Source: Candidatus Omnitrophota bacterium (GTDB taxonomy: Bacteria > Omnitrophota > Gorgyraeia > Zapsychrales > Fredricksoniimonadaceae). From it: a stretch of DNA of 64,000 nucleotides. The position numbers and the translations under genes were made by a program. The notes under the pieces are model-generated. The model saw only the letters and a list, made by a program, of their open reading frames with translations. It had not been told where the DNA came from and did no database searches. Positions 19,869 to 64,000 of this stretch are shown here, in pieces. Location: positions 728,991 to 792,990 of the forward strand of contig JBGAJA010000002.1 of NCBI GenBank assembly GCA_044225175.1, written 5' to 3'. Numbering within the stretch: the first letter of the stretch is position 1; the number at the start of each line of letters is the position of its first letter.

Positions 19869-20032
19869 TTAAGAATATTCGGCATATTCATTTTAGCGTT
19901 TTTACATTAATTAAAGATTAAGAACGTGTTTAAAATCAAGAAACCGCTTTCTAAGGCCAGACTCGCCTGACCCGCCTGCCTGATTTGCATTTTAAGTATT
20001 TATATGCTTTACTTGATGTAATATTAAAGCCT

Positions 20033-26000: not shown

Positions 26001-26992
26001 TATGGAGGAAAAAGGATGAGTTCATTCGTAGTTTGGAAAAGAAATTAGAGTTCTCACAGGCTTTTCTAGATGATATGACGCTTGGGAATGCTTTAAGAAA
26101 ATCAAAAGAGAAGAAAAGTCTTAGAATAGATATTCCTGATAGCGTGGTAGGCCAGATAAAGTCGTTAGGTCTGTATAAATTTTTGTTAGATCAAATGGTT
26201 GGTTTGGTTGCTGAGAAACCCGTCACAATTAAGTTTTATTATGACGAAGATGACCCTGCGAAGGCGTATTTCGTGAGGCGCTCAAATCAGATGTATTGGA
26301 ACTTATTTTGTAATTTGGATGATATTAAAGTGTTTATCGATATTTTGAATAATAAAGAAAATAAAACTGGTGCATTTTCATTCTTTAAAGATACGTTAAA
26401 TTTGGTGACTCATGAATTGGCTCATCAAGATGAACCTGATGGTCCAACGCATCAACAAGAACAAATTGATGATAGTAAGAAAAAAGAATTGCCTCATTGG
26501 GTAGATGATGAGGAGTTGGAAGCGATCGCTGGAACATTTGCCTATCGTCAAAGATTGGTTATGGCAGACTATCTGTATGCATTAGAGAAAGGAAATTGGC
26601 AACAGCTTATTTCGGCATTACCTAAAGGGTTGATTAAGCAAACAAAAAATATTAAAGATTTGCGCTTCTTTATTAATTCATCAAAGAAACGTACAGCCAC
26701 AGAGGTAACAGAAGAAGATGAGGCAATGAATACACCATCCAAGAACAGCGCGCTAACTGTTAATACTCCAATTATAGCTGGGAGTACAAATACAGGTGGA
26801 ATTGATTTTACCACCAATAAAATTCCTTTGGACATTCAAAATAGACGAGAAAGTATAAAATTTCATCTCGATCCTGCTATGCTCTATCAACTCCAAGACG
26901 CCCCTGGTTTCGCACCCGTGATTATTAGCATGCAACCTATGACAAATGTAAGGAATTTCTTGGGCATTAGTGATCCTTCCTTGAATAATTGA
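20033..26992 (+). CDS. Giant secreted multidomain protein (about 2.3k aa) with two GHKL (Hsp90/sacsin-type) ATPase-like modules and a C-terminal HExxH motif
   Basis: Signal-peptide-like N-terminus MRSQISLFTLFCFLMASIVGPVPISFASF; ATG at 20033 is preferred to the TTG at 19985. Module 1 about 21520-21610: EIISNAIDAV followed by GRFGVGFYM (Bergerat N-box and G2-box, Hsp90/sacsin-like). Module 2 about 24910-25150: ELVQNSRDAI, SDSVGMDL (G1-like), GFFGEGFYTIF (G2). HELAH at 26411-26425. Confidence 0.85.
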   Translation: MRSQISLFTLFCFLMASIVGPVPISFASFTQEVHLPKPGVMVHLSAPVTPPLLKGIKVHLDNPFRFDFILDPGYGSIADAHNLRQESNRLIKYFLASLTVPEADLWVNLSPYEKDRIVPESFGQTEMGRDLLVQDYMLKQITASLIYPEDEVGRRFWKRIYEESAKRYGTTNIPVNTFNKVWILPEKAVVYENSKAGTAYVVESRLKVMLEEDYLSMDKNTLSSLPVRQAGPKASVEDPGINELDARQKHSDMTNKLGSQIIREIVIPELTKEINEGSNFSQLRQVYSSLILATWYKKKIKDSILAQVYSDKNKVQGININDPQEKDKIYQQYLQAFKKGVYNYIKEEKDLSTQQPVSRKYFSGGAELIDVDAAMTILHHVSSEQLGRQENLIEVSSRFEAMRPEEIRNTDPAMLTELKSPVWVHHQLTWFSLSHVNGVLRSINYLEKSQQESHRDNYEKYLDNIKKFGKLFDALAYAPVRIDTAIENQGESINQGAAEIISNAIDAVLEKQGHPAIGRFGVGFYMILSELEQEGDRVQVLTKNGKNQTRFIEFMKYDDQVFVRWEILPKESEKGTKVRVIKSSFNKERTEQLIDYLKGRFARNTNLNIQIVHADGRKEMMNERKGLIGLDKRSIGIKFPQEKVVMRFLKDGYEIQDDGKGMADKVIFDNFLIPRATTKPMPQEEDHEVKVFYKPSTKENQKTIKAKINVQINGQIISSFEKTGYNLPEEFLLELSPLSWIPESRNKIRLTKEQVISVIEQILEKSSGQERAQLLNAFALILRKIQDEVSTDIIQLAINQVRPWIKRQKSQGKIILPNEPGFFEFDMDQKNAIYLNPVLFDFNPADVPSMQHIKEYDSESVMLYVADFDSKSKLISFEHEGYVFINKTYYEAHKDNAAPIDLWLDSIRTGYRTHGEPPKKGSFHASSKLSLPLKKKTMADKLSFSHALLDEIRKSLSEFLKSMPQDNRLIWMSKLEQLWKNLSDSPGFDLNRFINGILRFSKNEEQRSYKIENLKNTSWGSDPIVANGYVYFLKKGTYGKDPVIVKMDTKGKIKEIKVDGLHSDGFLGVTLDGLLIFSQNSHRSKSWREFVDLVLVKENGKKKVLEVGVNHEFPFGILAMNGHSLFGEEIVVTKKAIYASGTTNSLYDPIEDGLVKVDFEGHSEFINLSQLGYTRPVPYHYVDGRLFVSVVSKDERQCVLIINESGKILKEVPLTEKIRSAVFGSQYHNNVVDLHGDVYFALRDTVKRLDSNGEIKDLNFGKSFDLGKDSKIPEEDAAIEDIFVYKQEVYVALGRGFLEYGEKHQKYLFRRYDFYKLDAAGNFEKIWSIELKELTRVLPTRAGMLIVYNDSRELYDKLGVIEEIVNHEGRVSSLGVPYEGIQIDVITRFLEEHSRFVRQNRDLTNRFYVNLAYQKDFNLLQSDQTLTALYFLPKNMLKYRNAQLIRDFSAFIKDKSFDNLKQFASILQRLDGRIKSTVDAEALLKRWIDLYESLHKRKSGLDSFFEMMNEFGQSLLEEETLPEFAKYLSQDIVLYAKYLRGELEGLLQDKELSFEIPQKTNFTIQDLDVAKVNIAYRSLPQIRNYKSLKTYANALGELSSKADLRSAEREIISAISGQDRSDNIWTRELVQNSRDAIKTAKGHPVSKKITIDNFVRKGTNEWIVRVSDSVGMDLPTLIGPLFVVGESTKIDVLLAGFFGEGFYTIFAEYDRVNIKTSDGNGKTYYLTIGKNTRGLPVIQQMSETNEQFKGTIIERVVRFEKDRPNLESIFVVQDLIRYVGAIQGVDIIYNGKKINEDLEIMARVTTPFKGDISLSITSASGHRRITQEGLYIEHLEKWILKYVPGKYRYLLTLRGLNIDLPRGVPVTRARIGIAMAEKYRETIQRYVARAALQAVVRNYIRHGVMVPGVSDDYFSYEKGDYSISKDIYRDAQLINENQMQGIDFSRYVITDNDSESEKVRKNRNLEYLVTLIEVEEKGKILSLQSIREELWRKKDEFIRSLEKKLEFSQAFLDDMTLGNALRKSKEKKSLRIDIPDSVVGQIKSLGLYKFLLDQMVGLVAEKPVTIKFYYDEDDPAKAYFVRRSNQMYWNLFCNLDDIKVFIDILNNKENKTGAFSFFKDTLNLVTHELAHQDEPDGPTHQQEQIDDSKKKELPHWVDDEELEAIAGTFAYRQRLVMADYLYALEKGNWQQLISALPKGLIKQTKNIKDLRFFINSSKKRTATEVTEEDEAMNTPSKNSALTVNTPIIAGSTNTGGIDFTTNKIPLDIQNRRESIKFHLDPAMLYQLQDAPGFAPVIISMQPMTNVRNFLGISDPSLNN

Positions 26993-51158: not shown

Positions 51159-51493
51159 TACAGCTGTTTTTATTAATGATAGTGCAATTGGTCATAGCCG
51201 TTATTGTAATTCTTGTTCTTAAAAGGCTTTTAGACCGTGAACTTAAGAAGGCTGCACTTGAAAAGTTTCAAACTTTAAAGATTAATGGGGAGAAGACCAT
51301 TACTATTTATTACGCAGGACAGTTATCTGCCCATGTTAAGGAAGAATTATTAGATGTTGCGAGAAATAAGTATAAAGAAAGTAATCTTGTTTTTGAACAG
51401 AACCAAATTCTTAAAGGCGGCTTAGTGATTGTCGTTGATGAACAGATGCTTGATTTCAGCGTATCTAATCGTCTAGAAAATTTTTGGTTATGA
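51155..51493 (+). CDS. Hypothetical small membrane protein
   Basis: 112 aa; N-terminal TM (LFLLMIVQLVIAVIVILVL); translationally coupled between the S41 peptidase and GT2 genes. Confidence 0.4.
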   Translation: MIQLFLLMIVQLVIAVIVILVLKRLLDRELKKAALEKFQTLKINGEKTITIYYAGQLSAHVKEELLDVARNKYKESNLVFEQNQILKGGLVIVVDEQMLDFSVSNRLENFWL

Positions 51494-52209
51494 ATTTAAA
51501 TTCCATAAAGATACTAATTATTGTTCCTGCTTTTAACGAGAGCGGAAATATTGCGCGTACGATTAGTGATATTAAGAATCAGAATTTGCCTCTTGATATT
51601 GTTGTTATTGATGACGGATCAACTGATACAACCGTTCGTGAAGCTGTTGCTGCAGGAGCCAACGTTGTTTCATTGCCCTTTAATTTAGGCATAGGTGGTG
51701 CAGTCCAAACTGGTTTTAAGTATGCTCTCAAGCATGATTATGATATTGCGATCCAAATGGATGGTGATGGACAGCATGACGGTAATTTCCTTGTTAAATT
51801 AATTAATCCTATTTTAGAAAATCAAGCGGATATGGTAGTGGGGAGTCGTTTTATTGAAGATAATGGGGGCTTCAAATCTTCTTTTGCTCGTCGAATAGGA
51901 ATTCGTTTCTTTGTTTCGTTAATCAATTTTCTTACTGGATTGAAGATTACTGATCCTACGTCTGGTTTTAGGGCCCATAATAAGAAAATGATTGCTGCTT
52001 TTGCGCGTAGTTATCCGCAAGATTTTCCAGAACCTGAAGCTATTGTGGTAGCTAAACATATTGGTGCTCAAATTAATGAGGTTTCTGTTTTGATGCGCAG
52101 ACGCGAAGATGGTAGTAGTTCGATTCGTCATATGAAAAGTGTCTATTATATGGTGAAGGTGACCTTTGCTATTTGCTTACATATGATTCAATCTCCTCAA
52201 AGGAAATAG
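51484..52209 (+). CDS. GT2 polyprenyl-phosphate glycosyltransferase (DPM1/GtrB/ArnC-like)
   Basis: ILIIVPAFNE...VVIDDGSTD...QMDGDGQHD (DxD region) typical of the GT-A fold GT2 family. Confidence 0.8.
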   Translation: MVMNLNSIKILIIVPAFNESGNIARTISDIKNQNLPLDIVVIDDGSTDTTVREAVAAGANVVSLPFNLGIGGAVQTGFKYALKHDYDIAIQMDGDGQHDGNFLVKLINPILENQADMVVGSRFIEDNGGFKSSFARRIGIRFFVSLINFLTGLKITDPTSGFRAHNKKMIAAFARSYPQDFPEPEAIVVAKHIGAQINEVSVLMRRREDGSSSIRHMKSVYYMVKVTFAICLHMIQSPQRK

Positions 52210-52566
52210 ATGATGAATATACATTTTCTCGCAATCGCCTTGTCTCTTTTAATTTTTTTGTTAGTTGTGGATTTGGTTCGCCGTCAAAAATTAACTTTTA
52301 AATATGCTTTGGCTTGGTTGATGGTTTCAGGATCTGCAGTTTTCTTTGCTATTTTTTATAAGTTTCTTTTTAAGATAGCAGACTTTTTGGGTTTTGAGCT
52401 TCCTAGCAACTTTATTTTTTTCACATTATTTTGTGTCTTCGTGTTCTTAAGCCTTGTGCTAACAGTGTTTTTGTGTCAGCAGAATAATCGTAATGACACT
52501 ATGGCTCAAAAAATTGCGCTTTTAGAATTTGATATTAAGCAAATTAAACAAAAAACCTCAACCTAG
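52210..52566 (+). CDS. Small 3-4 TM membrane protein (DUF2304/GtrA-like companion of GT2 enzymes)
   Basis: 118 aa, hydrophobic, immediately downstream of the GT2 gene as in many GT2/small-membrane-protein pairs. Confidence 0.5.
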   Translation: MMNIHFLAIALSLLIFLLVVDLVRRQKLTFKYALAWLMVSGSAVFFAIFYKFLFKIADFLGFELPSNFIFFTLFCVFVFLSLVLTVFLCQQNNRNDTMAQKIALLEFDIKQIKQKTST

Positions 52567-52577
52567 AAAGCTTTCAC

Positions 52578-53561
52578 TTGATTCTTAGTGTTATTGTGCC
52601 TGCCTATAATGCTCAGGGAACGATTGGTAAAACCCTGAAAGCTTTAACCGAACAAGATTTTTCAGGATCTTTTGAGATTATCGTTGTTGATGACGGGTCT
52701 ACGGATCAAACTGCCGAAATTATACGCACATTTCCTAAAGTTCAATACATTTATCAGCCCAATGCTGGTCCTGGGACGGCTCGTAATCATGGAGCAAAAG
52801 TCTCTCAAGGGCAAGTACTTGCCTTTACGGATTCAGATTGTATTCCTCATAAAGATTGGCTTACTCGTTTGATGGAAGGGTTTATATCAGATGATGTTGG
52901 GGTTGTTATGGGTAGTTATGGAATTGTTAATAAGGAGAGTTTATTAGCTTTCTGTGTTTATAAAGAAATTATTTTTCGGCATAACAAATTTTTGAGTGAT
53001 TTTCCAAAAGTTTTTGGAGGGTATAATTTTTGTATAAAAAAAATTGTTTTTGAGCAGGTAGGTGGTTTTAATACTTCCTATAGGAATGCAAGCGGGGAAG
53101 ACAATGATCTAAGTTATAAGATCATTTCAAGTAATTGGCGCATTTATTTTGAGCGTAAAGCCCTTGTAGACCACTATCATCCAACTCAATTGAATAAGTA
53201 TTTGAAAGAACAGTTTCGTCATGGTTTTTGGAGGGTGCGTATGTACATGGATCACCCTGGCATGGCTTCTGGGGATGGGTATACGTTCTGGAAGGATATT
53301 GTAGAGATACCTCTAAGTCTGTTTATCATAGTATTTATTTTGCTAAGTCCTTTTAATCTAATAAGTTTTAAAGATTTGTTTTTTTATCTTTTCTTTCCTT
53401 TTTTGTTTTTGGAAATTTTTTTCGCACAGAGGATGCTTCATGATATCAATAAAGAATTTTTTTGGGGATTTGTTATGTTTTTAAGAAGTTTTAGCAGAGC
53501 TTTAGGTTTGTCGACGGGAATTTTGTATATTTTTATTAAAAAAAATTTAAATAAACCTTGA
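52578..53561 (+). CDS. GT2 glycosyltransferase with C-terminal membrane anchor
   Basis: SVIVPAYNAQ...IIVVDDGSTD...FTDSDCIP motifs; hydrophobic C-terminus; alternative (TTG) start. Confidence 0.75.
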   Translation: MILSVIVPAYNAQGTIGKTLKALTEQDFSGSFEIIVVDDGSTDQTAEIIRTFPKVQYIYQPNAGPGTARNHGAKVSQGQVLAFTDSDCIPHKDWLTRLMEGFISDDVGVVMGSYGIVNKESLLAFCVYKEIIFRHNKFLSDFPKVFGGYNFCIKKIVFEQVGGFNTSYRNASGEDNDLSYKIISSNWRIYFERKALVDHYHPTQLNKYLKEQFRHGFWRVRMYMDHPGMASGDGYTFWKDIVEIPLSLFIIVFILLSPFNLISFKDLFFYLFFPFLFLEIFFAQRMLHDINKEFFWGFVMFLRSFSRALGLSTGILYIFIKKNLNKP

Positions 53562-53671: not shown

Positions 53672-54268
53672 GTGAATATGGCTAAAGAGACAGCCGAACA
53701 AAAGTTACTCAAAGCACTTCAGAAAAAATCACCAGGAGCAGTTCCTTCCGTCGGCAAAAAGCTTGATGAGAAGAAGAAATTAAATTTTTCTTTTTCAATT
53801 TTTGATCTCAATAAAATTTTATTTATAGCCATTCTTGTTTGTCTCGCCATTTTAATTTATCAATTTCATTCCGGTTCCGTTTTAATTAATAAAGATGTCA
53901 GTTTTCTAGATCAAGTCAAAACCAACCCTGCCAAAGAACAAATAAATAATCTCAAAGAAAAAAACGATGTTAAGTATTACATTAATAGTTTTGGAAATCG
54001 TAATATTTTTAAACCATACGACATTTCTCTTGGCAAAGCAGCTGCAGGCCAGCCAGATTTAGCTAAGCGTTTAACAAAATATAAACTTGTTGGAGTTGCT
54101 TGGCTTGATCTTCCTGAATCTGCCTCAATTATGGTTGAAGATTCTCAAACGAAAACAACATATTTTCTTAAAACTGGAGAAAAATTAGAAGGCGTAACAG
54201 TTAAGACTATCTATACGGATAGAGTAGTCTTCAGTTACGAAAATGAGGAGACGACAATTAAGCTATGA
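53672..54268 (+). CDS. Bitopic inner-membrane protein, possible secretin-associated (PilP/PilN/GspC-like) component
   Basis: Lys-rich cytoplasmic N-terminus, single TM (ILFIAILVCLAILIYQF), about 120-aa periplasmic beta-rich C-terminus. Stop overlaps the secretin start (ATGA). Confidence 0.45.
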   Translation: MNMAKETAEQKLLKALQKKSPGAVPSVGKKLDEKKKLNFSFSIFDLNKILFIAILVCLAILIYQFHSGSVLINKDVSFLDQVKTNPAKEQINNLKEKNDVKYYINSFGNRNIFKPYDISLGKAAAGQPDLAKRLTKYKLVGVAWLDLPESASIMVEDSQTKTTYFLKTGEKLEGVTVKTIYTDRVVFSYENEETTIKL

Positions 54269-55935
54269 TAAAACATATCCTTAAACCCAAACTGATTTTA
54301 TTGTTGGTTTTGTTTTTTACGATGCCAATGATTCTTATTGCATCCCGAGCCTACTCTCAGGAAGAAAATGCTTCGGACGCTAATGAGAATGCAGGGGCGG
54401 AGCTTCCTAAACCAATTATTTTAACCGAACCTAAAGAGCCTCTTGAAGATCGTATGCAGCGCAAGATTACTTTAGATGTCCGCGATATGAATGTCGTCGA
54501 TGTTATTAAATTTCTTGCTCAAAAAGGTGAATTTAATGTGGTTATTTCCCCTAATGTTGATGGTCGCACAACAGTGTTGCTACATGCTGTTTCAATCCAA
54601 GATGCCTTAGACATTGTTTCGATTTCAAATAAGCTGGCTTATCACACAGAAGGTCAAATTCTTCAAATAATGTCTGCTGCAGAATATGAAGCGCTTTATG
54701 GAAAACAATTTGGTGATAAAACACAAGTTACAATTATTCATTTGCAGTATTCAAAACCAAGCTATGTATTAGCTGCTTTGGATAACATGAAAAGTAATAT
54801 TGGAAAGATTATTATTGATGAAGATACAGGAACAGTTGTTTTAGTAGATACTCCTCAATCAATTACTGTGATGAAAAAAGCAATCGAACAGATTGAACGA
54901 CCATTAGATACTTTTGTTTATGATCTTAAGTATGCAAAGGCAGATGTGGTTGCTGAGAAATTGCGTTCAAGGATTGATGCCAAAGCTGTTGGATCAATCA
55001 CTGCTGATGAACGTTCTAATCAATTGCTTGTCAGGGTTTTTCCAGGAAGACATGATGAAGTAGAGAAGATCATTAAAAGCTTAGATGAGCCAACCAAAGA
55101 AGTTTTAATCGAAGCTCGTGTTTTGGAAATTATCTTGAAACCTAATTACGATATGGGAATTGATTGGAAAGATCAAATCTTTAATAATGGTAAAAGTAAA
55201 TTTAGTGTATCTGGTAATTATCTTAATGATTCCAGCCCTTCTGATCCTTTAAATTCTGTTTTTACCAGAATAGGTGTAGGTAATGCTAATACCAAAGACT
55301 TTACTTTAGCTATTAGATCTTTACAACAAGTCAGTGATACTAAAATCCTTTCAACCCCTCAAATATTAGTAACTAATAATGAAGAAGCTAAGATTCACAT
55401 TGGGGATACCGTTCCTTATATAGTCTCAACAACCAATGGTACGGGTGATAATGCTGTAAGAAGCGAAGACGTAAGATTTATAGATGTTGGACTTAAGTTG
55501 GATGTTGTTCCAGTCATCAATGATGATGGAATGGTTACCATGAGACTTCGTCCAGAAATTTCTTCAGTTGTTGGAAAAATTACTTCCCAAGGCGGTGGAA
55601 TTCCCCAAGTTAATAAAACTGAGGTTGAAACTAGCGTTATGGTTCTTGATGGCCAAACTATTGTTTTGGCAGGGTTAAGAAAAGAAGACAAATCACACAT
55701 TAAAAAAGGACTTCCAGTCTTAATGAATGTCCCATATTTAGGAAATTTATTTTCCAGCACATCAGATGCAATAACTTCTACTGAAATCGTTATTTTAATT
55801 ACGCCACATATTATTAAAGGTAGCGATGATTATGCAAAAGTTCAAGGAACTGTTAAACCTGCTAAGAATTATGATGAAAACTTTAAAATGAAGGAACCGG
55901 TTCAAAGTGACAATCAACCACCGGCTAAATACTAA
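54265..55935 (+). CDS. Secretin-family outer-membrane channel (GspD/PilQ-like)
   Basis: Signal peptide; N0-like domain; canonical secretin domain (ILSTPQILVTNNEEAKIHIGDTVPY...VNKTEVETSVMVLDGQTIVLAGL...PVLMNVPYLGNLF...IVILITPHII). Confidence 0.9.
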   Translation: MIKHILKPKLILLLVLFFTMPMILIASRAYSQEENASDANENAGAELPKPIILTEPKEPLEDRMQRKITLDVRDMNVVDVIKFLAQKGEFNVVISPNVDGRTTVLLHAVSIQDALDIVSISNKLAYHTEGQILQIMSAAEYEALYGKQFGDKTQVTIIHLQYSKPSYVLAALDNMKSNIGKIIIDEDTGTVVLVDTPQSITVMKKAIEQIERPLDTFVYDLKYAKADVVAEKLRSRIDAKAVGSITADERSNQLLVRVFPGRHDEVEKIIKSLDEPTKEVLIEARVLEIILKPNYDMGIDWKDQIFNNGKSKFSVSGNYLNDSSPSDPLNSVFTRIGVGNANTKDFTLAIRSLQQVSDTKILSTPQILVTNNEEAKIHIGDTVPYIVSTTNGTGDNAVRSEDVRFIDVGLKLDVVPVINDDGMVTMRLRPEISSVVGKITSQGGGIPQVNKTEVETSVMVLDGQTIVLAGLRKEDKSHIKKGLPVLMNVPYLGNLFSSTSDAITSTEIVILITPHIIKGSDDYAKVQGTVKPAKNYDENFKMKEPVQSDNQPPAKY

Positions 55936-56709
55936 TTGAAGCGGAGAAACCTTATGGGTAACCACAACTGGTCTAGAGTTTCAAAACACATTACAGTAAT
56001 GATTATTTTAATGGTTTGTTGGGCAATGGGACAACACCCAGCAGTTTATGCTCAAGATAATACAGATGTTCCAGCTGAACTTGGAACACCACAACCACAA
56101 GATGATCGCGAGCAATTTGTTAAAGAAATTCGACGTGTTGAAAATTTAAACAGAAAATATACTAAAGAAATTGAAGAAATCAAGTCGCTTTTATCTGAAA
56201 AAGATGAAGATTTCCAAAAAAGAATGAAGAGTTTAGAGGATAAATTAGTTTCTCAGCAAGGCGAAAGCAAAAAAACAATTGTAGATGAGAAAAATCAACA
56301 AACTTCCAAAGAATTAGAAGTTAAAACCAATGAAATGCTTTCAAAAGGTGTTGATTTAGATTTGGATGATCAACAATTTAAAGAAGAATTAGCTAAAGCA
56401 CATTACAACATGGGAAATATTTATTTTGAACGTGGCGAATATCAAAGAGCGGTCGTCGAATATTATCAAGCTGTTGATTTAACTCCAAATGATCCAGATA
56501 CACACTACAATTTAGCCTTCGTCAGTGGAGAGTATTTAGGTGACCAAGAAACTGCTCTTAAGCATTATCAATGGTATTTGTACCTAAAACCTAATGCAGC
56601 TGACGCCAGTAATGTTAAAGCAAAGATTATACAAGCTAAATTACACTTTAGAGCTAAGGTAGATTCAATAATTGATAAAGATAACGGTCACTACAATCTT
56701 GTTCGTTAA
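55936..56709 (+). CDS. TPR-repeat protein with signal/anchor and coiled coil (possible secretin pilotin/accessory)
   Basis: Hydrophobic N-terminus; K/E-rich coiled coil; C-terminal TPR motifs (AHYNMGNIYFERGEYQRAVVEYYQAVDLTPNDPDTHYNLAF). Confidence 0.6.
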   Translation: MKRRNLMGNHNWSRVSKHITVMIILMVCWAMGQHPAVYAQDNTDVPAELGTPQPQDDREQFVKEIRRVENLNRKYTKEIEEIKSLLSEKDEDFQKRMKSLEDKLVSQQGESKKTIVDEKNQQTSKELEVKTNEMLSKGVDLDLDDQQFKEELAKAHYNMGNIYFERGEYQRAVVEYYQAVDLTPNDPDTHYNLAFVSGEYLGDQETALKHYQWYLYLKPNAADASNVKAKIIQAKLHFRAKVDSIIDKDNGHYNLVR

Positions 56710-56737: not shown

Positions 56738-58303
56738 ATGACCCAGAAGTTTTCACAAATTGTATTCACACTAATAGCTATTTGTCTTTTGACAACAGTT
56801 GCACAAGCTAACAATTTGTCCATATCTAACGTTACTTTAGGGACCAGAAATCCTGGTGCCAATTCTCTTATTGTTAAATTTAATGTGAGTTGGGATCATT
56901 CTTGGCACAATAAGATTAATCATGATGCCGCATGGCTTACTATTCGACTACACAATACATCTGATACCACAACCAATAAAAAAATTTGTGAGGTTAGTGC
57001 GAGTGGAATAAATCCAGCAGGGTCTTCCGTCGGAACAGCTACAAATTTGGAATTTTATGTACCTTCAGATAAAAAAGGGGCATTTTTAAGAAGATCTTCT
57101 AATGGTAACGTTATTAATGTGTCCACACAAGGTGCTCAGTTGACAATTGATTACAGTAGTTGTGGTTTTTCTGATGATGACCAAATTATTGCCAGCGTTT
57201 TTGGGGTTGAAATGGTTTTTATTCCTCAAGGTGATTTTTACGCTGGAGATTATGATACTAGCACTGCTTCATTAGATCAGGGAACTGCAGATAATCGTCC
57301 ATGGCACATAATTAATGAAAACTCAATTTCAGTAAACAATCCTTCTACAGGTGGATTTCGCTATATTTCTAATAATAACTCAGGAGAAGTAGCCACAGGA
57401 GCATCGTTTGCTATTCCTAATAATTTTCCCAAAGGTTACGCTCCATTTTATGTCATGAAATATGAAATTACTGAAGGTCAATGGGTTGAATTTATCAATT
57501 CTTTAGGATCTGCTGCTGCCCGCTCTAATCGCGATTTGACCGATAATAATCATAAGAATTCCGATGCAGTGACAGCAAGAAATACAATTAGTTGTTCAGG
57601 TTCGCCATTGAGTTGTTCTACTCTACGTCCTGCCCGCGCAGTAAGTTTTTTAAGTTGGATGGATTTAGCAGCATTTTTAGATTGGAATGCTCTTCGACCT
57701 ATGAGTGAATTAGAGTTTGAAAAAATTGCCAGAGGTCCAAGTTTACCAATCCCCGGTGAATATGTATGGGGAAATACTATAATTGCACCAGCTGCTGATT
57801 TAAGCGGTGATGAAGATGGCTCCGAAACAATCACTACTACAGATGCCAATGTCAATATTCTTGGTAATTCAAGCTTTGTTGGGGGAGATGCCCAAGCAGG
57901 ACCTATACGATCCGGAATTTTTGCTACAAGTGCAACTAATAGAACAACCGCTGGTGCTGGTTACTATGGAGTCATGGAATTGTCAGGTAATCTTAAAGAA
58001 CACGTAGTCACAATCGGAAATCCTTCAGCGCTTACTTTCGACGGTACCCAAGAAGGAGATGGTGTTTTGACCTCAGTTTCTGGATTTGAAGGTAATGCGA
58101 ATACTATTTCTTGGCCAGGAACTGATGCTACTCCAGCAAATGGTGTAACAGGAGCGGATGGTTCTGGTTTTCGAGGTGGATCATGGGCTGATTTGACTAA
58201 TAGTTTATTAAGGACATCTGATCGTAGTGAAGCTTCGTTATCTTCAACATCAGCAGCAGATAATTTTGGCGGTAGAGGGGTTCGAACATATGATGGCAAT
58301 TAA
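56738..58303 (+). CDS. Secreted FGE-sulfatase (SUMF1/DUF323)-fold protein, GldJ/GldK-like, paralog A
   Basis: Signal peptide ...TTVAQA; beta-rich N-terminal domain; FGE-fold motifs FYVMKYEITEGQW, RPARAVSFLSWMDLAAFLDWNALRPMSELEFEKIARG, VWGN, RGGSW. Confidence 0.75.
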   Translation: MTQKFSQIVFTLIAICLLTTVAQANNLSISNVTLGTRNPGANSLIVKFNVSWDHSWHNKINHDAAWLTIRLHNTSDTTTNKKICEVSASGINPAGSSVGTATNLEFYVPSDKKGAFLRRSSNGNVINVSTQGAQLTIDYSSCGFSDDDQIIASVFGVEMVFIPQGDFYAGDYDTSTASLDQGTADNRPWHIINENSISVNNPSTGGFRYISNNNSGEVATGASFAIPNNFPKGYAPFYVMKYEITEGQWVEFINSLGSAAARSNRDLTDNNHKNSDAVTARNTISCSGSPLSCSTLRPARAVSFLSWMDLAAFLDWNALRPMSELEFEKIARGPSLPIPGEYVWGNTIIAPAADLSGDEDGSETITTTDANVNILGNSSFVGGDAQAGPIRSGIFATSATNRTTAGAGYYGVMELSGNLKEHVVTIGNPSALTFDGTQEGDGVLTSVSGFEGNANTISWPGTDATPANGVTGADGSGFRGGSWADLTNSLLRTSDRSEASLSSTSAADNFGGRGVRTYDGN

Positions 58304-59948
58304 AACCATAGCATTCACACTACTAGCTTTCTTGGTATTAGTACCATCTAGCTATGCCAATAATTTACAGTTAAAAAATTTGAATGTGGTAAGTTCAGAT
58401 ACAGCTTCAGAAACGATGACTTTCTCTTTTGACTTAACTCAAGAAAATAGCTGGAGAACTAATACCAATAATACAATTAGTTATGATGCTGTATGGGTTT
58501 TTATGAAATATTCAACTGATGGTGGAATTACCTGGAAGCATGGTACCATGAATGGAAGCGGTGTTAATCCCGCAGGTTTTTACGCTCCAGCTAATTTCCA
58601 GATTGAAGTCCCAGTCATTGACCAAAAAGGTTTCTTTTTGCATCGTTCTGATTTTGGTTCAGGAAACATTGCTCCAACAGGAATCAAATTTGTATGGAAC
58701 TATCACCAAGATGGTTTAACAACTGCGGTGGCTGAAGCTTCAAATACAATTCATAAAATATTCGGTATTGAAATGGTCTATATTCCCACAGGCGCATTTT
58801 ATGCGGGAGATGGGGACAGTTCTGCAGAATTCCATCTAAAAGCTGGATCAGCAGACAATACTCCTTGGTATATTCAAAGTGAAACTGGTTTCATGACAAC
58901 CAATACTCCTAATGGAGGGTATTATTACGTAAGTACTGGAGCTACTGGTGAATATGCAGATGGTGCCCCCTTCCAAATAACAAATGATTTTCCTAAAGGT
59001 TATAATGCATTTTATTTAATGAAATATGAATTAACTGAAGGACAATGGGTCAGCTTCTTTAATACACTTTCTAATGCAGCGAAAGTCAATCGCGATATTA
59101 CAACAGGTACAGGTGTAGGTGGAAAGGCCTCTGATGGTGTGGTTAATCGTAATACTATCGCTTGGGACCACTTACAACCTTCATTACCGGCTACCACTTT
59201 AAGACCATCTCGACCTGTTAGCTATGTTTCATGGCCTGATGTTGCAGCTTATGCAGCATGGGCAGGTCTTCGTCCTATGACAGAATTAGAATTTGAAAAA
59301 GCTGCACGTGGGAAAGGTAAAGAAGCCATTGCTGATGAGTTTGCTTGGGGTAATACAAGTTATTCTAGCGCTAATCCTTCTGATATCGATCCTAATGCTG
59401 ATGAAAATGGCACAGAAACAATTTTGACTGGTTCTGCAAACTTTAATGGTAATTCTTCAGGGTTTACCAGTGGTGATGGACGTCCAGGTGGGCCAGCAGA
59501 TGGTCAAGTTGGACCTCTTCGTTCTGGAATTTTTGCCTCTGCTCTTTCGAATAGAAATAAGAGCGGAGCAGGTTTTTATGGCAATATGGAACTTTCCGGT
59601 AATTTATATGAGCCCGTTGTCACCATAGGTCGTACTCAAGGACTTTCTTTTCTGGGTTCTCATGGAAATGGTGAATTAACAAGTGCTTCCGGATATGAAG
59701 GTTTTGCATCCAATAGTGATTGGCCTGGATATGATTCAGCACATGGTGTTGTAGATCACACTAAAGGTATTGGTTACCGAGGGGGAGATTTTAAATCATC
59801 TCTTCGTGCTTTTGAAATTTCTTCTCGAACAAATGCAGCTAAAGATCCAGATACTCAAGGATGTCTTCAACGTTATGATTCAGGTGCAGGATGCGTTGGG
59901 TTAAGTGGAGTCTTTTACGGTGGGCGTTTAGCTAGAACAGCACCTTAA
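58290..59948 (+). CDS. Secreted FGE-sulfatase (SUMF1/DUF323)-fold protein, GldJ/GldK-like, paralog B
   Basis: Start at MMAIKTIAFTLLAFLVLVPSSYA (signal peptide), overlapping paralog A by 14 nt. Colinear with paralog A: FYLMKYELTEGQW, RPSRPVSYVSWPDVAAYAAWAGLRPMTELEFEKAARG, AWGN, RGGDF. Confidence 0.75.
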   Translation: MMAIKTIAFTLLAFLVLVPSSYANNLQLKNLNVVSSDTASETMTFSFDLTQENSWRTNTNNTISYDAVWVFMKYSTDGGITWKHGTMNGSGVNPAGFYAPANFQIEVPVIDQKGFFLHRSDFGSGNIAPTGIKFVWNYHQDGLTTAVAEASNTIHKIFGIEMVYIPTGAFYAGDGDSSAEFHLKAGSADNTPWYIQSETGFMTTNTPNGGYYYVSTGATGEYADGAPFQITNDFPKGYNAFYLMKYELTEGQWVSFFNTLSNAAKVNRDITTGTGVGGKASDGVVNRNTIAWDHLQPSLPATTLRPSRPVSYVSWPDVAAYAAWAGLRPMTELEFEKAARGKGKEAIADEFAWGNTSYSSANPSDIDPNADENGTETILTGSANFNGNSSGFTSGDGRPGGPADGQVGPLRSGIFASALSNRNKSGAGFYGNMELSGNLYEPVVTIGRTQGLSFLGSHGNGELTSASGYEGFASNSDWPGYDSAHGVVDHTKGIGYRGGDFKSSLRAFEISSRTNAAKDPDTQGCLQRYDSGAGCVGLSGVFYGGRLARTAP

Positions 59949-59985: not shown

Positions 59986-62900
59986 ATGTCAGATAAAAAA
60001 TTAAAATTGAAAACTTCAAATCGTCTACTACTATGCTTGGCTCTGTTAGCGTTTTCTGTAGTCGGTTTCGTTGTCTCTAAAGCCTTTGCTCAATACACTG
60101 GCGGCAATCAAACTTCTATTGAAGAAGCCACGATTGGAAGCAACATTTATGTTGGCGGTTCTCAAACCAATACTCCCTATGCTAGCTCTGATGGAACAGG
60201 ATCTTTGTCCCATGGTGCTGCAACCAAACTCGTTTTTAGTGTTATTCCTTCAGCAGAAAAACACGGTATAGCCTTTAGTCGCCAACCTGTTGTAGTCATT
60301 GAAGATGCTAATGGAAATATAGTTACTAGTGATAATTCAACTCAAGTAACCATTGCAATTCTTAATAATCCAGGCAATGGTGTCTTAAGAGGAGCTACTA
60401 CCATCCAGGCAGTTAATGGTTCTGCTAATTATTCCGACTTAAACATTACAAAAGCTGGACAACTTTATACATTGCAAGCAACTGCTGAAGGATTAACATC
60501 AGCTATTTCTTCTCCATTTGATGTACAGGTTGGAACAGGTCCTCAGGGTACTGCTACTTGGATAAGTACTTTAGGAGCATACCGTATTTTTACATGGATT
60601 GTAGATAACAACCAAAGACTGCCTTTAACCGGTGATACCTGTAATGATACTGTAATTTATAAAGCTGATGGGACTTCCGAAACAACGCTAACGATGGGAA
60701 CACCAGATCTCGTAAATAATTGGTGTAAATCTGATTTGACTTGGACACCTTCTAACTCTCAAATTTCTTATTTTGCAAATATTTCAATTATTCACTCTTC
60801 TACGACTCTTGAAAATTATATACCTTTAACTTTATCTGGTGGTTTTGCTCGTGATACATATGGTAACAATATCAACTGGCAAGACATTGCTCTCATCAAG
60901 GCTAAAACAGACACCATTAACTGGCAAGATATTGGAGTTATTAAAAGTAGCACAGATACAGTTAATTGGCAGGATGTCAGTGTTATTCTTTCCAATACAA
61001 ATTCTATTAAATCCATCACCAGTACTATTTCTACAAATGTCAATTGGCAAGACATTGATCGTATGTCCCAATCAGGTGTCAATTGGATGGATGTGGCTCG
61101 AACAACTTTAGTTGGGATTAATTGGAATGATTTCTCAATATTATCAAATGTTGGTATTAATTGGGCTGATTTTAGCGTCCTTACTAAGGGTGGGATCAAT
61201 TGGAATGATATTAGCGTGTTAGGTAAAGCTCATGTTAATTGGGCTGATTTCTCAAAACTTTCTTCTTTAGGAATTAATTGGAATGATATGGACAAGCTTT
61301 TTAAGGCCGGCGTGAATTGGCAAAGCTTTTCCTTATTATCAAATACAGGAATTAATTGGTATGACATGGCTATCATGTCTGGAGCAAGAATTGATTGGTC
61401 AAACACAATTAATTGGTACAGTCTTGCCGCTTTAACAACTTCAGGAGTAAATTGGAATGATTTAGCTATTTTATCAGTCAATAATATTAATTGGAATGAT
61501 ATCAAAATTTTGTCTACCGTTGGGATCAATTGGAATGATTTGAATATTTTAAGTAAGTCAGGAATTAATTGGCGTGATATAGATCTTTTAACCACGGCTG
61601 GAATTAATTGGGTAGACTTTGGAATTTTAGGTAAAGCTGGAATCAATTGGAATGATTTAGGAGTGTTAGCTAAAACAGGAATTAATTGGCAAGATTTAGG
61701 AGTTTTTACTAAAGCTGGCATCAATTGGAACGATTTAGGTGTTTTAACTAAAACGGGAATTAATTGGTTGGATTTACAAGTTTTATCTCGCACAGGAATT
61801 AATTGGAGTGATATTAATGTTTTAAGTAAGACAGGAATTAACTGGCAAGACTTTACGGCATTGAGTAAAGTCGGAATCAACTGGAATGATTTAGGAGTAT
61901 TAGCAAAGACTGGAATCAACTGGCAAGACTTAGGAGTGTTAAGTAAGGCTGGAATCAACTGGAATGATTTAGGAATATTAGCCAAGACAGGAGTTAATTG
62001 GCAAGATTTTGGAGTACTAAGTAAGGCTGGAATTAACTGGAATGATTTAGGAGTATTGGCCAAAAGTGGAATTAACTGGCAAGATTTTGCAGCAGTGAGC
62101 AAGGTAGGGATCAATTGGAATGATTTGCAAGTCATGCATTCACTTGGAATCAACTGGCAAGATTTTGCAGCGTTGAGTAAAGTTGGAATCAACTGGAATG
62201 ATTTAGGAGTATTAGCAAAGACCGGAATCAACTGGCAAGACTTTGCAGTATTAAGTAAGAATGGAATCAACTGGAATGATTTAGGAGTGTTGGCAAAGAC
62301 AGGAATCAACTGGCAAGATTTTGGAGTGTTGAGTAAGACGGGAATTAACTGGAATGACTTAAATGTGTTAAGTAGAACTGGAGTTAATTGGCAAGATTTT
62401 GGAGTGTTAAGTAAGGTTGGAGTCAACTGGAATGATTTAGGAGTGTTAGCCAAGAGTGGAATTAATTGGCAAGATTTAGGAGTATTGAGTAAGACAGGAA
62501 TCAATTGGAATGATTTAGGAGTATTAGCAAAGACAGGAATCAACTGGCAAGATTTAGGAGTGTTAAGTAAGACCGGAATTAACTGGAATGACTTAAATGT
62601 GTTAAGTAGGACCGGAGTAAACTGGATGGATTTAGCAGTGTTCAGTAAAGCCGGAGTTAACTGGAATGATTGGGGAATATTAGGAAAGAGCGGAATCAAT
62701 TGGCAAGACTTTGCAGCGTTGAGCAAGGTAGGGATCAATTGGAATGACCTAGTTACATTAAGTAAGACCGGAGTTAACTGGCAAGATTTTGCAGCATTAA
62801 GTAAGACGGGAATTAACTGGAATGACTTAAATGTGTTAAGTAGAACCGGGATTAACTGGATAGATTTAGCAGTGTTTAGTAAATCTGGAGTTAACTGGAA

Positions 62901-64000
62901 TGATTGGGGAATATTAGGAAAGAGTGGAATCAACTGGCAAGACTTTGCAGCGTTGAGTAAAGTTGGAATCAACTGGAATGATTTAGGAGTGTTGGCGAAG
63001 ACCGGAATCAACTGGCAAGATTTAGGAGTATTAAGCAAGACAGGAATTAATTGGAATGACATGCAGGTATTGCATGCAACAGGAATCAACTGGGTTGATT
63101 TAAGTGTATTTAGCAAGGTAGGAATCAATTGGAATGATTGGAGTGTGTTAGGCAAGAGTGGAATTAACTGGCAAGATTTTGGAGTATTAAGCAAGGTAGG
63201 AGTTAATTGGAATGATTTAGGAGTGTTGGCGAAGACCGGAATCAACTGGCAAGATTTAGGAGTGTTGAGTAAGGTTGGGATCAATTGGAATGATATTGGA
63301 GTATTAGCGAAGAGTGGAATTAACTGGCAAGATTTAGCAGCCTTTAGTAAGGCAGGGGTTAACTGGAATGATTGGGGAATATTAGGAAAGAGTGGAATCA
63401 ACTGGCAAGATTTTGCAGCATTGAGCAAAGTTGGAATCAACTGGAATGATTTAGGAGTATTAGCAAAGACCGGAATCAACTGGCAAGACTTAGGAGTGTT
63501 AAGTAAGGCTGGAATCAACTGGAATGATTTAGGAGTATTAGCAAAGACTGGAATTAACTGGCAAGATTTAGCAGCCTTTAGTAAGGCAGGGGTTAACTGG
63601 AATGATTGGGGAATATTAGGAAAGAGTGGAATCAACTGGCAAGACTTTGCAGCATTGAGCAAAGTTGGAATCAACTGGAATGATTTAGGAGTATTAGCAA
63701 AGACCGGAATCAACTGGCAAGACTTTGGAGTGTTAAGTAAGGCTGGAATCAACTGGAATGATTTAGGAGTATTAGCAAAGACAGGAATCAACTGGCAAGA
63801 TTTTGGAGTATTAAGCAAGGTAGGAGTTAACTGGAATGATTTAGCAGTGTTAGCAAAGACCGGGGTTAACTGGCAAGATTTTGCAGCAGTGAGTAAGGTT
63901 GGGATCAATTGGAATGATTTGCAAGTCATGCATTCACTTGGAATTAACTGGCATGATTTTGCAGCATTGAGCAAAGTCGGAGTTAACTGGAATGATTTAG
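59986..64000 (+). CDS. Giant secreted tandem-repeat protein (3' end beyond window): signal peptide, Ig-like N-terminal region, then at least 80 copies of a 13-aa G(I/V)NW(N/Q)D(L/F)(G/A)(V/A)L(S/A)K(T/A) repeat
   Basis: ATG at 59986-59988. MSDKKLKLKTSNRLLLCLALLAFSVVGFVVSKAFAQ signal peptide. Manual translation of this frame is open to the window end. Residues about 60-160 resemble a bacterial Ig-like domain (VxVxDANGNxV...GxAxxGxAxF..LxIxKAGxYTLxAxAxGL). Repeats begin about 60868. Confidence 0.8.
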   Translation, partial: MSDKKLKLKTSNRLLLCLALLAFSVVGFVVSKAFAQYTGGNQTSIEEATIGSNIYVGGSQTNTPYASSDGTGSLSHGAATKLVFSVIPSAEKHGIAFSRQPVVVIEDANGNIVTSDNSTQVTIAILNNPGNGVLRGATTIQAVNGSANYSDLNITKAGQLYTLQATAEGLTSAISSPFDVQVGTGPQGTATWISTLGAYRIFTWIVDNNQRLPLTGDTCNDTVIYKADGTSETTLTMGTPDLVNNWCKSDLTWTPSNSQISYFANISIIHSSTTLENYIPLTLSGGFARDTYGNNINWQDIALIKAKTDTINWQDIGVIKSSTDTVNWQDVSVILSNTNSIKSITSTISTNVNWQDIDRMSQSGVNWMDVARTTLVGINWNDFSILSNVGINWADFSVLTKGGINWNDISVLGKAHVNWADFSKLSSLGINWNDMDKLFKAGVNWQSFSLLSNTGINWYDMAIMSGARIDWSNTINWYSLAALTTSGVNWNDLAILSVNNINWNDIKILSTVGINWNDLNILSKSGINWRDIDLLTTAGINWVDFGILGKAGINWNDLGVLAKTGINWQDLGVFTKAGINWNDLGVLTKTGINWLDLQVLSRTGINWSDINVLSKTGINWQDFTALSKVGINWNDLGVLAKTGINWQDLGVLSKAGINWNDLGILAKTGVNWQDFGVLSKAGINWNDLGVLAKSGINWQDFAAVSKVGINWNDLQVMHSLGINWQDFAALSKVGINWNDLGVLAKTGINWQDFAVLSKNGINWNDLGVLAKTGINWQDFGVLSKTGINWNDLNVLSRTGVNWQDFGVLSKVGVNWNDLGVLAKSGINWQDLGVLSKTGINWNDLGVLAKTGINWQDLGVLSKTGINWNDLNVLSRTGVNWMDLAVFSKAGVNWNDWGILGKSGINWQDFAALSKVGINWNDLVTLSKTGVNWQDFAALSKTGINWNDLNVLSRTGINWIDLAVFSKSGVNWNDWGILGKSGINWQDFAALSKVGINWNDLGVLAKTGINWQDLGVLSKTGINWNDMQVLHATGINWVDLSVFSKVGINWNDWSVLGKSGINWQDFGVLSKVGVNWNDLGVLAKTGINWQDLGVLSKVGINWNDIGVLAKSGINWQDLAAFSKAGVNWNDWGILGKSGINWQDFAALSKVGINWNDLGVLAKTGINWQDLGVLSKAGINWNDLGVLAKTGINWQDLAAFSKAGVNWNDWGILGKSGINWQDFAALSKVGINWNDLGVLAKTGINWQDFGVLSKAGINWNDLGVLAKTGINWQDFGVLSKVGVNWNDLAVLAKTGVNWQDFAAVSKVGINWNDLQVMHSLGINWHDFAALSKVGVNWNDL
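60868..64000 (+). repeat. 39-bp (13-codon) coding tandem repeat array, organised as a 78-bp higher-order repeat, degenerate at the 5' side and near-identical toward the 3' side
   Basis: Repeated units such as ggaatcaactggcaagacttaggagtgttaagtaaggct and ggaatcaactggaatgatttaggagtattagcaaagacc recur head-to-tail to the end of the window. Confidence 0.9.

Follow-up and report, generated by a model that had tools for sequence, protein, structure and literature searches.

The window analysed here, a stretch of 64,000 nucleotides from a Candidatus Omnitrophota genome, ends inside a gene for a protein built from tandem 13-residue units, which we assign to a family termed INW. On the + strand, the frame opened by the ATG at 59986 stays free of stop codons to base 63999 (1338 codons) and runs off the window. 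An original prediction had described the product as a giant secreted protein; the word giant is unproven, with 1338 amino acids (aa) visible, the 3′ end beyond the window and complete relatives spanning 868–2809 aa. Related proteins and loci are designated by P and L numbers.

Coding status and anatomy of the repeat gene

Within the repeat region, only the + frame and its − strand mirror are stop-free; the other four frames hold 80–102 stops. Differences between units fall on codon positions 1, 2 and 3 in the numbers 2621, 2577 and 5978, and the invariant Gly, Asn and Asp of the repeat are encoded by synonymous codons. The repeat frame is thus a real coding sequence under purifying selection, and neither a chance open reading frame (ORF) nor a DNA satellite. 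A 914-aa ORF on the − strand (61230–63974, product 'LLNAAKSCQLIP...') was rejected as a gene and is a mirror artefact, because the third-position excess is phased to the + frame and all family homologues are read in that frame. It exists only since the repeat unit has no stop in the mirror frame, and its annotation as a gene is unwarranted.

The protein begins with a predicted Sec-type signal, consisting of a Lys-rich n-region, a 17-residue hydrophobic core and a cleavage site placed by the −3/−1 rule, followed by a linker and two domains that precede the array (Table 1). The original prediction had likewise seen a signal peptide and an Ig-like region at this end. The N terminus is conserved in the closest complete orthologue, P0002 (868 aa, from a Candidatus Omnitrophica metagenome-assembled genome), which is 50% identical to the window protein across the first 345 residues. 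An AlphaFold2 model of P0002, built with 17 homologues, has a hydrophobic helix at residues 13–33, a Ser/Thr/Gly linker at residues 34–75 with a low predicted local distance difference test score (pLDDT) and no secondary structure, and two beta-sandwich domains at residues 80–290 with a pLDDT of 85–96 (86–96 in domain 1; 83–93 in domain 2, whose strands lie at 185–287). Domain 2 aligns at 50% identity between the window protein and P0002, and the linker motif 'QY(T/S)GG' is common to P0002, P0003 and P0023. Foldseek matched the confident N-terminal part of this model to Ig tandems at an E value of about 1e-4, among them titin, filamin, the S-layer proteins SlaB and Sap and the Big domains of BbgIII. 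Around 90 database matches cover only aa ~75–185 (about 8% of the query) at 35–52% identity, and many of these proteins bear Big_1 or Invasin_D3-type Pfam domains; Pfam gave no match at E ≤ 0.1 on the Ig-like region of the window protein itself.

Counted from Trp positions, the array holds 80 units, 75 of them in strict 13-residue register. Three leading units stand at 15-aa spacing (aa 294–340), ten follow from aa 351 and 67 from aa 474. The ten-unit block closes with a conserved 6-aa half-unit, 'RIDWSN' (aa 468–473; one of the 80), and the 67 distal units then run in unbroken register up to the window end, where the last is cut. Around the leading units, the entry segment with its 'IKxKTDT' motifs is conserved in P0002, P0003 and P0001 and is predicted, at low confidence, to be helical. 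The window consensus, G-[IV]-N-W-[NQ]-D-[LF]-[GA]-V-L-[SA]-K-x, recovers the GINW(N/Q)DLGVL(A/S)K(T/A) unit originally proposed.

The tandem organization is equally clear at the DNA level. Tandem Repeats Finder reported a 39-bp array at 61528–63844 (59 copies) and, more strongly, a 78-bp array at 61598–64000 (30.8 copies, 76% matches, score 2013), the latter matching the 26-aa super-repeat produced by the alternation of Asn and Gln at position 5, which had been noticed before as alternating NWND and NWQD units. Self-identity of the array DNA rises from 67% at lag 39 to 75% at lag 78 and 80% at lag 234, adding a six-unit (234-bp) higher-order repeat that is superimposed on the N/Q alternation. 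The units also differ in age along the array, as claimed in the original prediction: the best DNA identity to any other unit is 0.56–0.87 for units 11–22 and mostly 0.9–1.0 for units 23–76. Several stretches of 39–156 bp are identical, with units 60–63 repeated as units 66–69. The 3′ array has expanded recently through tandem duplication.

Near-identical arrays make copy number unreliable in short-read assemblies, and the repeat count of this gene may be mis-assembled. That all or part of the array length is an assembly artefact, or that the gene is a decaying pseudogene, would fit the 100% identity of several units and 156-bp blocks, the window end falling inside the array, and the relatives repeatedly cut at contig ends (the L001 copy is also broken inside the gene). 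However, 1338 codons pass without a stop or frameshift, substitutions follow a coding-type pattern, and complete relatives bear 30–78 units; the gene is therefore real and its exact copy number uncertain, and we regard this explanation as very improbable. The locus illustrates how INW genes break metagenome assemblies and so come to be under-counted.

Table 1 Features of the repeat gene and of the genes around it. Positions refer to the window unless a locus is named.
Feature	Position	Strand	Remarks
Start codon and Sec-type signal peptide	59986–60090	+	aa 1–35; predicted cleavage between AFA and Q
Ser/Thr/Gly-rich linker with conserved 'QY(T/S)GG'	60091–60219	+	aa 36–78
Ig-like beta-sandwich domain 1	60220–60528	+	aa ~79–181; Big_1/invasin-like by similarity
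Beta-sandwich domain 2, family-specific	60538–60849	+	aa ~185–288
Entry segment, three NW units 15 aa apart, 'IKxKTDT' motifs	60865–61035	+	aa 294–350
Proximal array, units 1–9 and half-unit 'RIDWSN'	61036–61404	+	aa 351–473; old, position-specific units
Distal array, diverged part, units 11–22	61405–61872	+	aa 474–629
Distal array, recently expanded, units 23–76 and a partial unit	61873–64000	+	78-bp and 234-bp repeats
Small GspC/T2SSC-like protein	53672–54268	+	Pfam T2SSC, E 0.0019; weak, below curated cut-off
Outer-membrane secretin	54265–55935	+	Pfam Secretin, E 4.9e-48; Secretin_N, E 3.2e-22
257-aa TPR protein	55936–56709	+	Pfam TPR; position kept in all loci read
Two paralogous exported FGE-sulfatase/SUMF1-like proteins	56738–58303 and 58227–59948	+	Pfam, E 4e-11 and 2.9e-17
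Unannotated gene directly 3′ of the repeat gene	L008 12610–13917; L009 13888–15255; L023 16502–17785		427–466 aa

The INW repeat and its relatives

Scans of the 1338-aa product against Pfam and NCBIfam at E ≤ 1 returned only spurious families with 0 significant stretches, and a PHROGs scan similarly gave spurious families and no true match. No hexapeptide, pentapeptide, RTX/HemolysinCabind, LRR or choline-binding class was matched in the Pfam and NCBIfam scans, consistent with the earlier claim that the 13-mer is not a hexapeptide, pentapeptide, RTX or LRR repeat. Pox_A31, Ntox33, Lysostaphin_N, CbiE and Sir2 were rejected as candidates, their scores being summed over many repeat copies with 0 significant stretches. 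Only one of the families appearing in the Pfam scans is a repeat family, the lysostaphin N-terminal repeats (PF25533), which share the 13-residue period; however, with 33 bits against a cut-off of 60, no significant stretch and an unrelated consensus, the resemblance is one of period only. Nine relatives scanned in the same way gave no repeat family, and PDB sequence searches with a four-unit repeat profile and with full-length P0002 gave chance-level matches only.

A calcium-binding loop of the dockerin/EF-hand type is 12 residues long, draws its ligands from acidic or amide residues at positions 1, 3, 5, 9 and 12, and is followed by a helix. Setting I-N-W-x-D on loop positions 8–12 brings G/D, L/M and K/D to positions 1, 3 and 5, which are acidic in some orthologues only and not in the window. 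This reading was rejected, given the unfit ligand positions and the lack of a Pfam match. The motif strings of the repeat are absent from the papers of the searchable literature, and the repeat is not described in two papers on Omnitrophota giant proteins (bioRxiv 10.1101/2023.11.21.568195; bioRxiv 10.64898/2026.06.07.730766). Judged by its sequence, the 13-residue repeat is an undescribed class within a known kind of repetitive exported bacterial fibre or adhesin.

The four-unit profile, a check proposed along with the original prediction, was also searched against 1.84 billion protein cluster representatives. Only 403 of these, many of them fragments, were retrieved at E ≤ 1e-3; a cut-off of 1e-10 leaves 143 and one of 1e-30 leaves 38. 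Three groups can be distinguished. The first is the core family of Candidatus Omnitrophota, in which a variable N-terminal head and an INW stalk are joined to a conserved helical C-terminal module. The second combines a GLUG/Peptidase_M26_N-type N terminus with about ten INW 13-mers and Ig/SKICH-like C termini. Members of the third have G[IV]NW units of 14–16 aa, or of alternating 13 and 11 aa, and one of them lies beside a phage baseplate-wedge gene.

The window protein has the marks of the core family: a signal with 'Y(T/S)GG', Ig-like domains, the 'IKxKTDT' entry, 13-mers with the half-unit stutter and a gene position after a secretin/TPR module. Heads differ between members, with two Ig-like domains in the window, LamG in P0006 and ~1300 aa including Ig_Rha78A_N in P0098, and so do unit counts, a search at 13-residue spacing giving about 30 units in P0002, 44 in P0006 and 78 NW motifs in P0098. 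The C-terminal module, of ~150 aa and ending in 'KL[DE]EIxAKxxAxKEAxxxDVVVKTWFE', is present in all six members that reach their C terminus and has no known relatives, with no Pfam match above noise and no phage match. In complete relatives it is modelled as long helices followed by a short conserved strand-like motif (in P0002, helices at 718–856, pLDDT 50–69). One further member, P0001 (L010 10001–16915, 2304 aa), ends inside the array and lacks the module with ~1.7 kb of contig beyond, which hints at a frameshift, a collapsed assembly or a gene call split in two.

Unit statistics were drawn from 397 distinct units of 15 core-family proteins; since these were picked on the NW motif, the invariance of Asn3 and Trp4 is built into the sample. 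Constraint is seen at eight of the 13 positions (1, 2, 3, 4, 6, 7, 10 and 11), positions 5, 8 and 12 vary freely, and Pro and Cys are virtually absent from arrays of ~1000 aa. The conserved positions and the near-absence of Pro and Cys together suggest a tightly constrained, regular structure. Orthologues differ in net charge, from +0.2 to −2.2 per unit, with highly acidic arrays in P0001, P0006 and P0098; that this range is reached through positions 5, 8 and 12 fits solvent-exposed faces.

Comparing arrays position by position separates an old part from a young one. Proximal units of the window protein and P0002 are 0.64 identical at the same position and 0.36 elsewhere, and are thus orthologous position for position. 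The half-unit stutter is found in the window protein and nine family members, and the first two distal units (from unit 11) still match their positional counterparts in P0002 at identities of 0.85 and 0.77. Within-array identity of the distal units is 0.37 in P0002, 0.66 in the window and 0.74 in P0003. In this lineage, therefore, recent tandem duplication of a block of two to six units has lengthened an old core of roughly 20–30 diverged units. The original prediction had proposed ongoing concerted evolution and expansion. Recent tandem duplication is clear, but species-specific homogenisation is undemonstrated, because the distal units of the window and P0003 are of the same type and resemble each other (0.66) as much as the window units resemble one another (0.66).

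The giant proteins of Omnitrophota are longer than 30,000 aa and combine HEAT, dockerin/EF-hand, thrombospondin type 3, enzyme and SecA-like domains with transmembrane (TM) anchors (West-Roberts et al. 2023, bioRxiv 10.1101/2023.11.21.568195). They resemble the INW family in coming from the same phylum, in being large, repetitive and exported, in having secretion or pilus genes beside them and PilZ near, and in the adhesive role proposed. By contrast, INW members have 868–2809 aa (the window protein at least 1338) and none of the giant-protein domains. Identity of the window protein as an Archaeovorin/Dockerin-type giant protein was rejected on length and domains; the 'dockerin-type' repeating subunit described by West-Roberts et al. 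was likewise rejected as an identity, being a ~200-aa CBM35-like barrel with flanking helices.

Secretin and pilus genes around the repeat gene

The window is ordinary chromosome, with dcw/Mur genes, a glycine-cleavage system, a NAD-dependent DNA ligase and two tRNAs. From 49917 on, every gene lies on the + strand and is closely spaced. The repeat gene is preceded, in this order, by a GT2 gene, a gene in the DUF2304 position, a second GT2 gene, the GspC/T2SSC-like gene, the secretin, the TPR gene and the two FGE-sulfatase-like genes (Table 1). At the position of the GspC-like gene, T2SSC is also matched in L009 and L023. From its size and position, which is that of a PilF/PilW/MshN-type secretin partner, the TPR protein may act as a pilotin. 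The start of the second FGE-like gene (58227–59948) is uncertain. FGE-like genes are kept in L008 and L001, occur in one copy in the P0023 locus and are absent from L009, L010 and L023. In one database match, P0029, an FGE-sulfatase domain is joined to an Ig-like domain of the kind seen in the head of the repeat protein.

The order GspC-like gene, secretin, TPR gene, FGE-like genes (where present) and INW gene recurs in the window, L001, L008, L009, L010 and L023; the short P0023 contig shows it from the FGE-like gene onward only. Downstream, all loci that reach far enough (L008, L009, L023 and the P0023 contig) continue with a conserved, unannotated protein of 427–466 aa and then with an F-type ATP synthase operon. 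The L008 and L009 copies of the unannotated protein, once translated, show a signal at the N terminus, a TM helix at the C terminus and two mutually similar modules, with no Pfam match. The gene is a candidate partner or anchor of the repeat protein, and in the window genome presumably lies just past the window end. Beyond the ATP synthase there are MshE-type ATPase and PilC-type platform genes in L008 and L009, a pilin gene in L008, and PilZ and PilM/PilN genes in L023. The ATP synthase (L008 13933–19336; L009 15342–21351; L023 17859–23409; also on the P0023 contig) thus parts the secretin/INW module from the pilus genes, an unusual but conserved interruption. A conserved upstream locus with gspD/E/F and rcpC has been described for the giant proteins (bioRxiv 10.1101/2023.11.21.568195; bioRxiv 10.64898/2026.06.07.730766).

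Conservation is uneven across this module. When the window is compared with L008, identity is 80% for the secretin and 69% for the FGE-like protein, against 50% for the N-terminal third of the repeat protein, which evolves far more rapidly than the proteins encoded beside it.

The N-terminal 300 aa of the repeat protein (59986–60885) contain many N-x-S/T sequons (NQT, NST, NGS, NYS, NIT, NDT and NIS). Two GT2 glycosyltransferase genes and the DUF2304-position gene (51484–53561) are conserved just upstream of the secretin module. Taken together, the sequons and the GT2 neighbours make glycosylation of the repeat protein possible.

Fold and proposed role of the stalk

The original prediction had suggested a beta-solenoid or fibre-like fold for the array. 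AlphaFold2 runs on 20 units (mean pLDDT 48.8) and on full-length P0002 (array pLDDT 40–55) both gave one helix of 8–9 residues and a loop of 4–5 residues per unit, with no strand in the array. Fold searches with the array models found only designed helical repeats and generic alpha-solenoids. Short helices alternating with tight loops are likewise seen in the short-helix alpha-solenoids (LRV, TALE/BurrH and ARM/HEAT); the leucine-rich variant (LRV) repeat has 24 residues. The hydrophobic moment is 7.9 at 100 degrees and 8.4 at 180 degrees, which does not separate helix from strand, and residue propensities favour neither.

A single-chain beta-solenoid with 13 residues, or 26 residues in two units, per coil and an Asn/Trp ladder would agree with the strict period, the invariant Asn, the conserved Gly and the alternating hydrophobic residues at I2/W4 and h7/V9, and the hydrophobic moment is compatible with alpha or beta structure. 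Coils made of several sequence repeats also occur in pentapeptide and hexapeptide proteins. However, both AlphaFold2 runs place a helix in every unit and not one strand across the array, although at low confidence, and beta-solenoids are a fold that AlphaFold2 as a rule recognises confidently. Known coils are at their tightest 12–14 residues long, with small cores; a set of 13 residues containing Trp, Ile and two or three Leu/Val is too bulky for one coil. We consider a beta-solenoid quite unlikely and do not retain that half of the suggestion; a fibre-like fold is still plausible.

Alternatively, the array could be the shaft of an obligate oligomer, such as a trimer of the kind found in phage tail fibres and in the shafts of adenovirus-type fibres. 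This would account for the failure of monomer modelling, with low pLDDT in both models despite very regular conservation, and the array is flanked by helical, coiled-coil-like segments. Phage-like relatives point the same way. The window repeats match a 'putative tail fiber protein' of Ralstonia jumbo phage FLC4-3B (BFM93982.1), marginally, at 35% identity over 120 aa (E 2e-4), and related G[IV]NW units of 14–16 aa occur in P0156, beside a phage baseplate-wedge gene. Both proteins share with the window protein a tandem G-x-N-W-x-[DS]-L-x-x-L core in fibre-type proteins. These links are weak, however, and the periods differ: 23-aa 'GGNWxDLxTL' units in the FLC4-3B protein and 14–16 aa in P0156, against 13 aa in the window. 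Moreover, both lie in phage structural-gene neighbourhoods, whereas the window gene is chromosomal, and the C-terminal module has no phage match. In IMG/VR (2.9 million viral contigs), a degenerate DNA pattern of three NWxD at 13-aa spacing had no true match; the sole contig retrieved proved spurious, its match lying out of frame within a collagen-like gene. An oligomeric shaft is, on balance, rather unlikely. A phage tail fibre was rejected as the identity of the repeat gene itself: the window holds dcw/Mur, glycine-cleavage, DNA-ligase and secretin genes, and PHROGs gave no match.

P0156 (L020 6001–9495), P0165, P0162, P0167, P0198 and P0205 form a group with 14–16-aa G[IV]NW units and a shared N-terminal motif, 'DTSSFxxNLxSxDxxVQxALxxLD', and one member adjoins a Phage_Wedge1 gene among large unannotated ORFs. 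This group may be a class of tail fibres related to the INW repeat.

As a structural target the repeat offers a 13-residue period, eight constrained positions and about 400 natural variants, with no PDB homologue and a fold that AlphaFold2 cannot place. Solving the array structure would yield either a new class of solenoid or fibre or the shortest helical repeat known.

With regard to function, we favour, with somewhat better than even confidence, a Sec-exported surface fibre or adhesin of Candidatus Omnitrophota with a head–stalk–anchor layout. This reading draws on the Sec signal, the interchangeable heads, the length-variable stalk, the C-terminal module next to a membrane-anchored partner, the fast evolution and the secretin linkage. 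After cleavage of the signal peptide, the two Ig-like beta-sandwich domains would form the N-terminal head, and ~80 tandem G-[IV]-N-W-x-D-h-x-h-[LM]-[ST]-x-x units a long, regular rod. By analogy with complete members, the ~150-aa helical C-terminal module ('...DVVVKTWFE'), which would lie off the window, may hold the protein at the cell, perhaps via the membrane-anchored protein encoded next. The most likely location would be the cell surface, with the adjacent GspC-like/secretin/TPR module, part of a type IV pilus or type II secretion-like system, assisting in export. Gain and loss of 39-, 78- and 234-bp blocks would shift stalk length, and hence reach, in frame, and the likeliest role would be adhesion or spacing towards other cells or polymers. 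Large Omnitrophota proteins adjoining type II secretion system-like loci have been proposed as prey-adhesion factors (bioRxiv 10.1101/2023.11.21.568195).

The layout recalls two well-known adhesin types. YadA-type trimeric autotransporters and LapA/MpIBP-type RTX adhesins are built as head, stalk and anchor, with a tandem-repeat extender that varies in copy number. They share with the INW family a variable N-terminal head, a repeat stalk, a conserved C-terminal module and in-frame length change. The INW family differs in having no YadA-anchor beta-barrel, RTX nonapeptide or Big/Cadherin-type extender domain, a 13-aa unit in place of a ~100-aa domain, and a secretin neighbour with no type V or type I secretion system genes seen. 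A trimeric autotransporter was rejected, as the C-terminal modules of relatives are long helices with no Pfam match above noise; the C terminus of the window protein lies beyond 64000.

Several points weigh against a surface fibre. We infer the surface location of the repeat protein, and secretins of pilus systems normally pass pilins rather than proteins of more than 1300 aa. Co-transcription with the secretin is suggested by spacing and strand only, with promoter and terminator scans performing no better than on shuffled sequence. The C-terminal module of the window copy falls outside the window, beyond base 64000, and the stalk fold, at a pLDDT of 40–55, is not established. Synteny beside housekeeping operons, namely the ATP synthase, could also fit an internal envelope component.

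The main functional rival follows from this last point: a periplasmic or envelope-internal scaffold of the type IV pilus/secretin machine, with a role like that of FimV/HubP- or TsaP-type accessory proteins. The invariant position of the gene between the secretin/TPR and pilus genes across the family would suit such a scaffold, as would the membrane-anchored partner and the highly acidic arrays of P0001, P0006 and P0098, FimV/HubP repeats being acidic too. However, a two- to three-fold range in copy number, swapped heads and fast evolution (50% identity against 80% for the secretin) are atypical of a fitted machine part and typical of exposed proteins. There is also no LysM or peptidoglycan-binding domain in Pfam scans and no TM segment beyond the signal. 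We therefore hold a scaffold to be fairly improbable.

Omnitrophota are ultra-small, mostly uncultured and in some cases predatory or host-dependent. A conserved, fast-evolving, length-variable exported protein tied to a pilus/secretin locus is a concrete candidate for a structure by which they contact other cells. More speculatively, and in our view with low probability, the surface-fibre reading can be extended to a new fibre fold, either a short-period helical solenoid or an oligomeric shaft, that would present a Trp/Asn/Asp ladder with rungs about a nanometre apart. With the downstream membrane protein and the secretin/TPR module as partners, it might then form an Omnitrophota-specific appendage that grips polysaccharide or cell-wall strands of prey or host, its reach set by repeat number.

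The window contains a second large ORF on the + strand (19985–26992), which is unrelated to the repeat protein and had no Pfam match at E ≤ 1e-3. It starts with TTG and encodes 2335 aa with an N-terminal hydrophobic segment and one NW motif.

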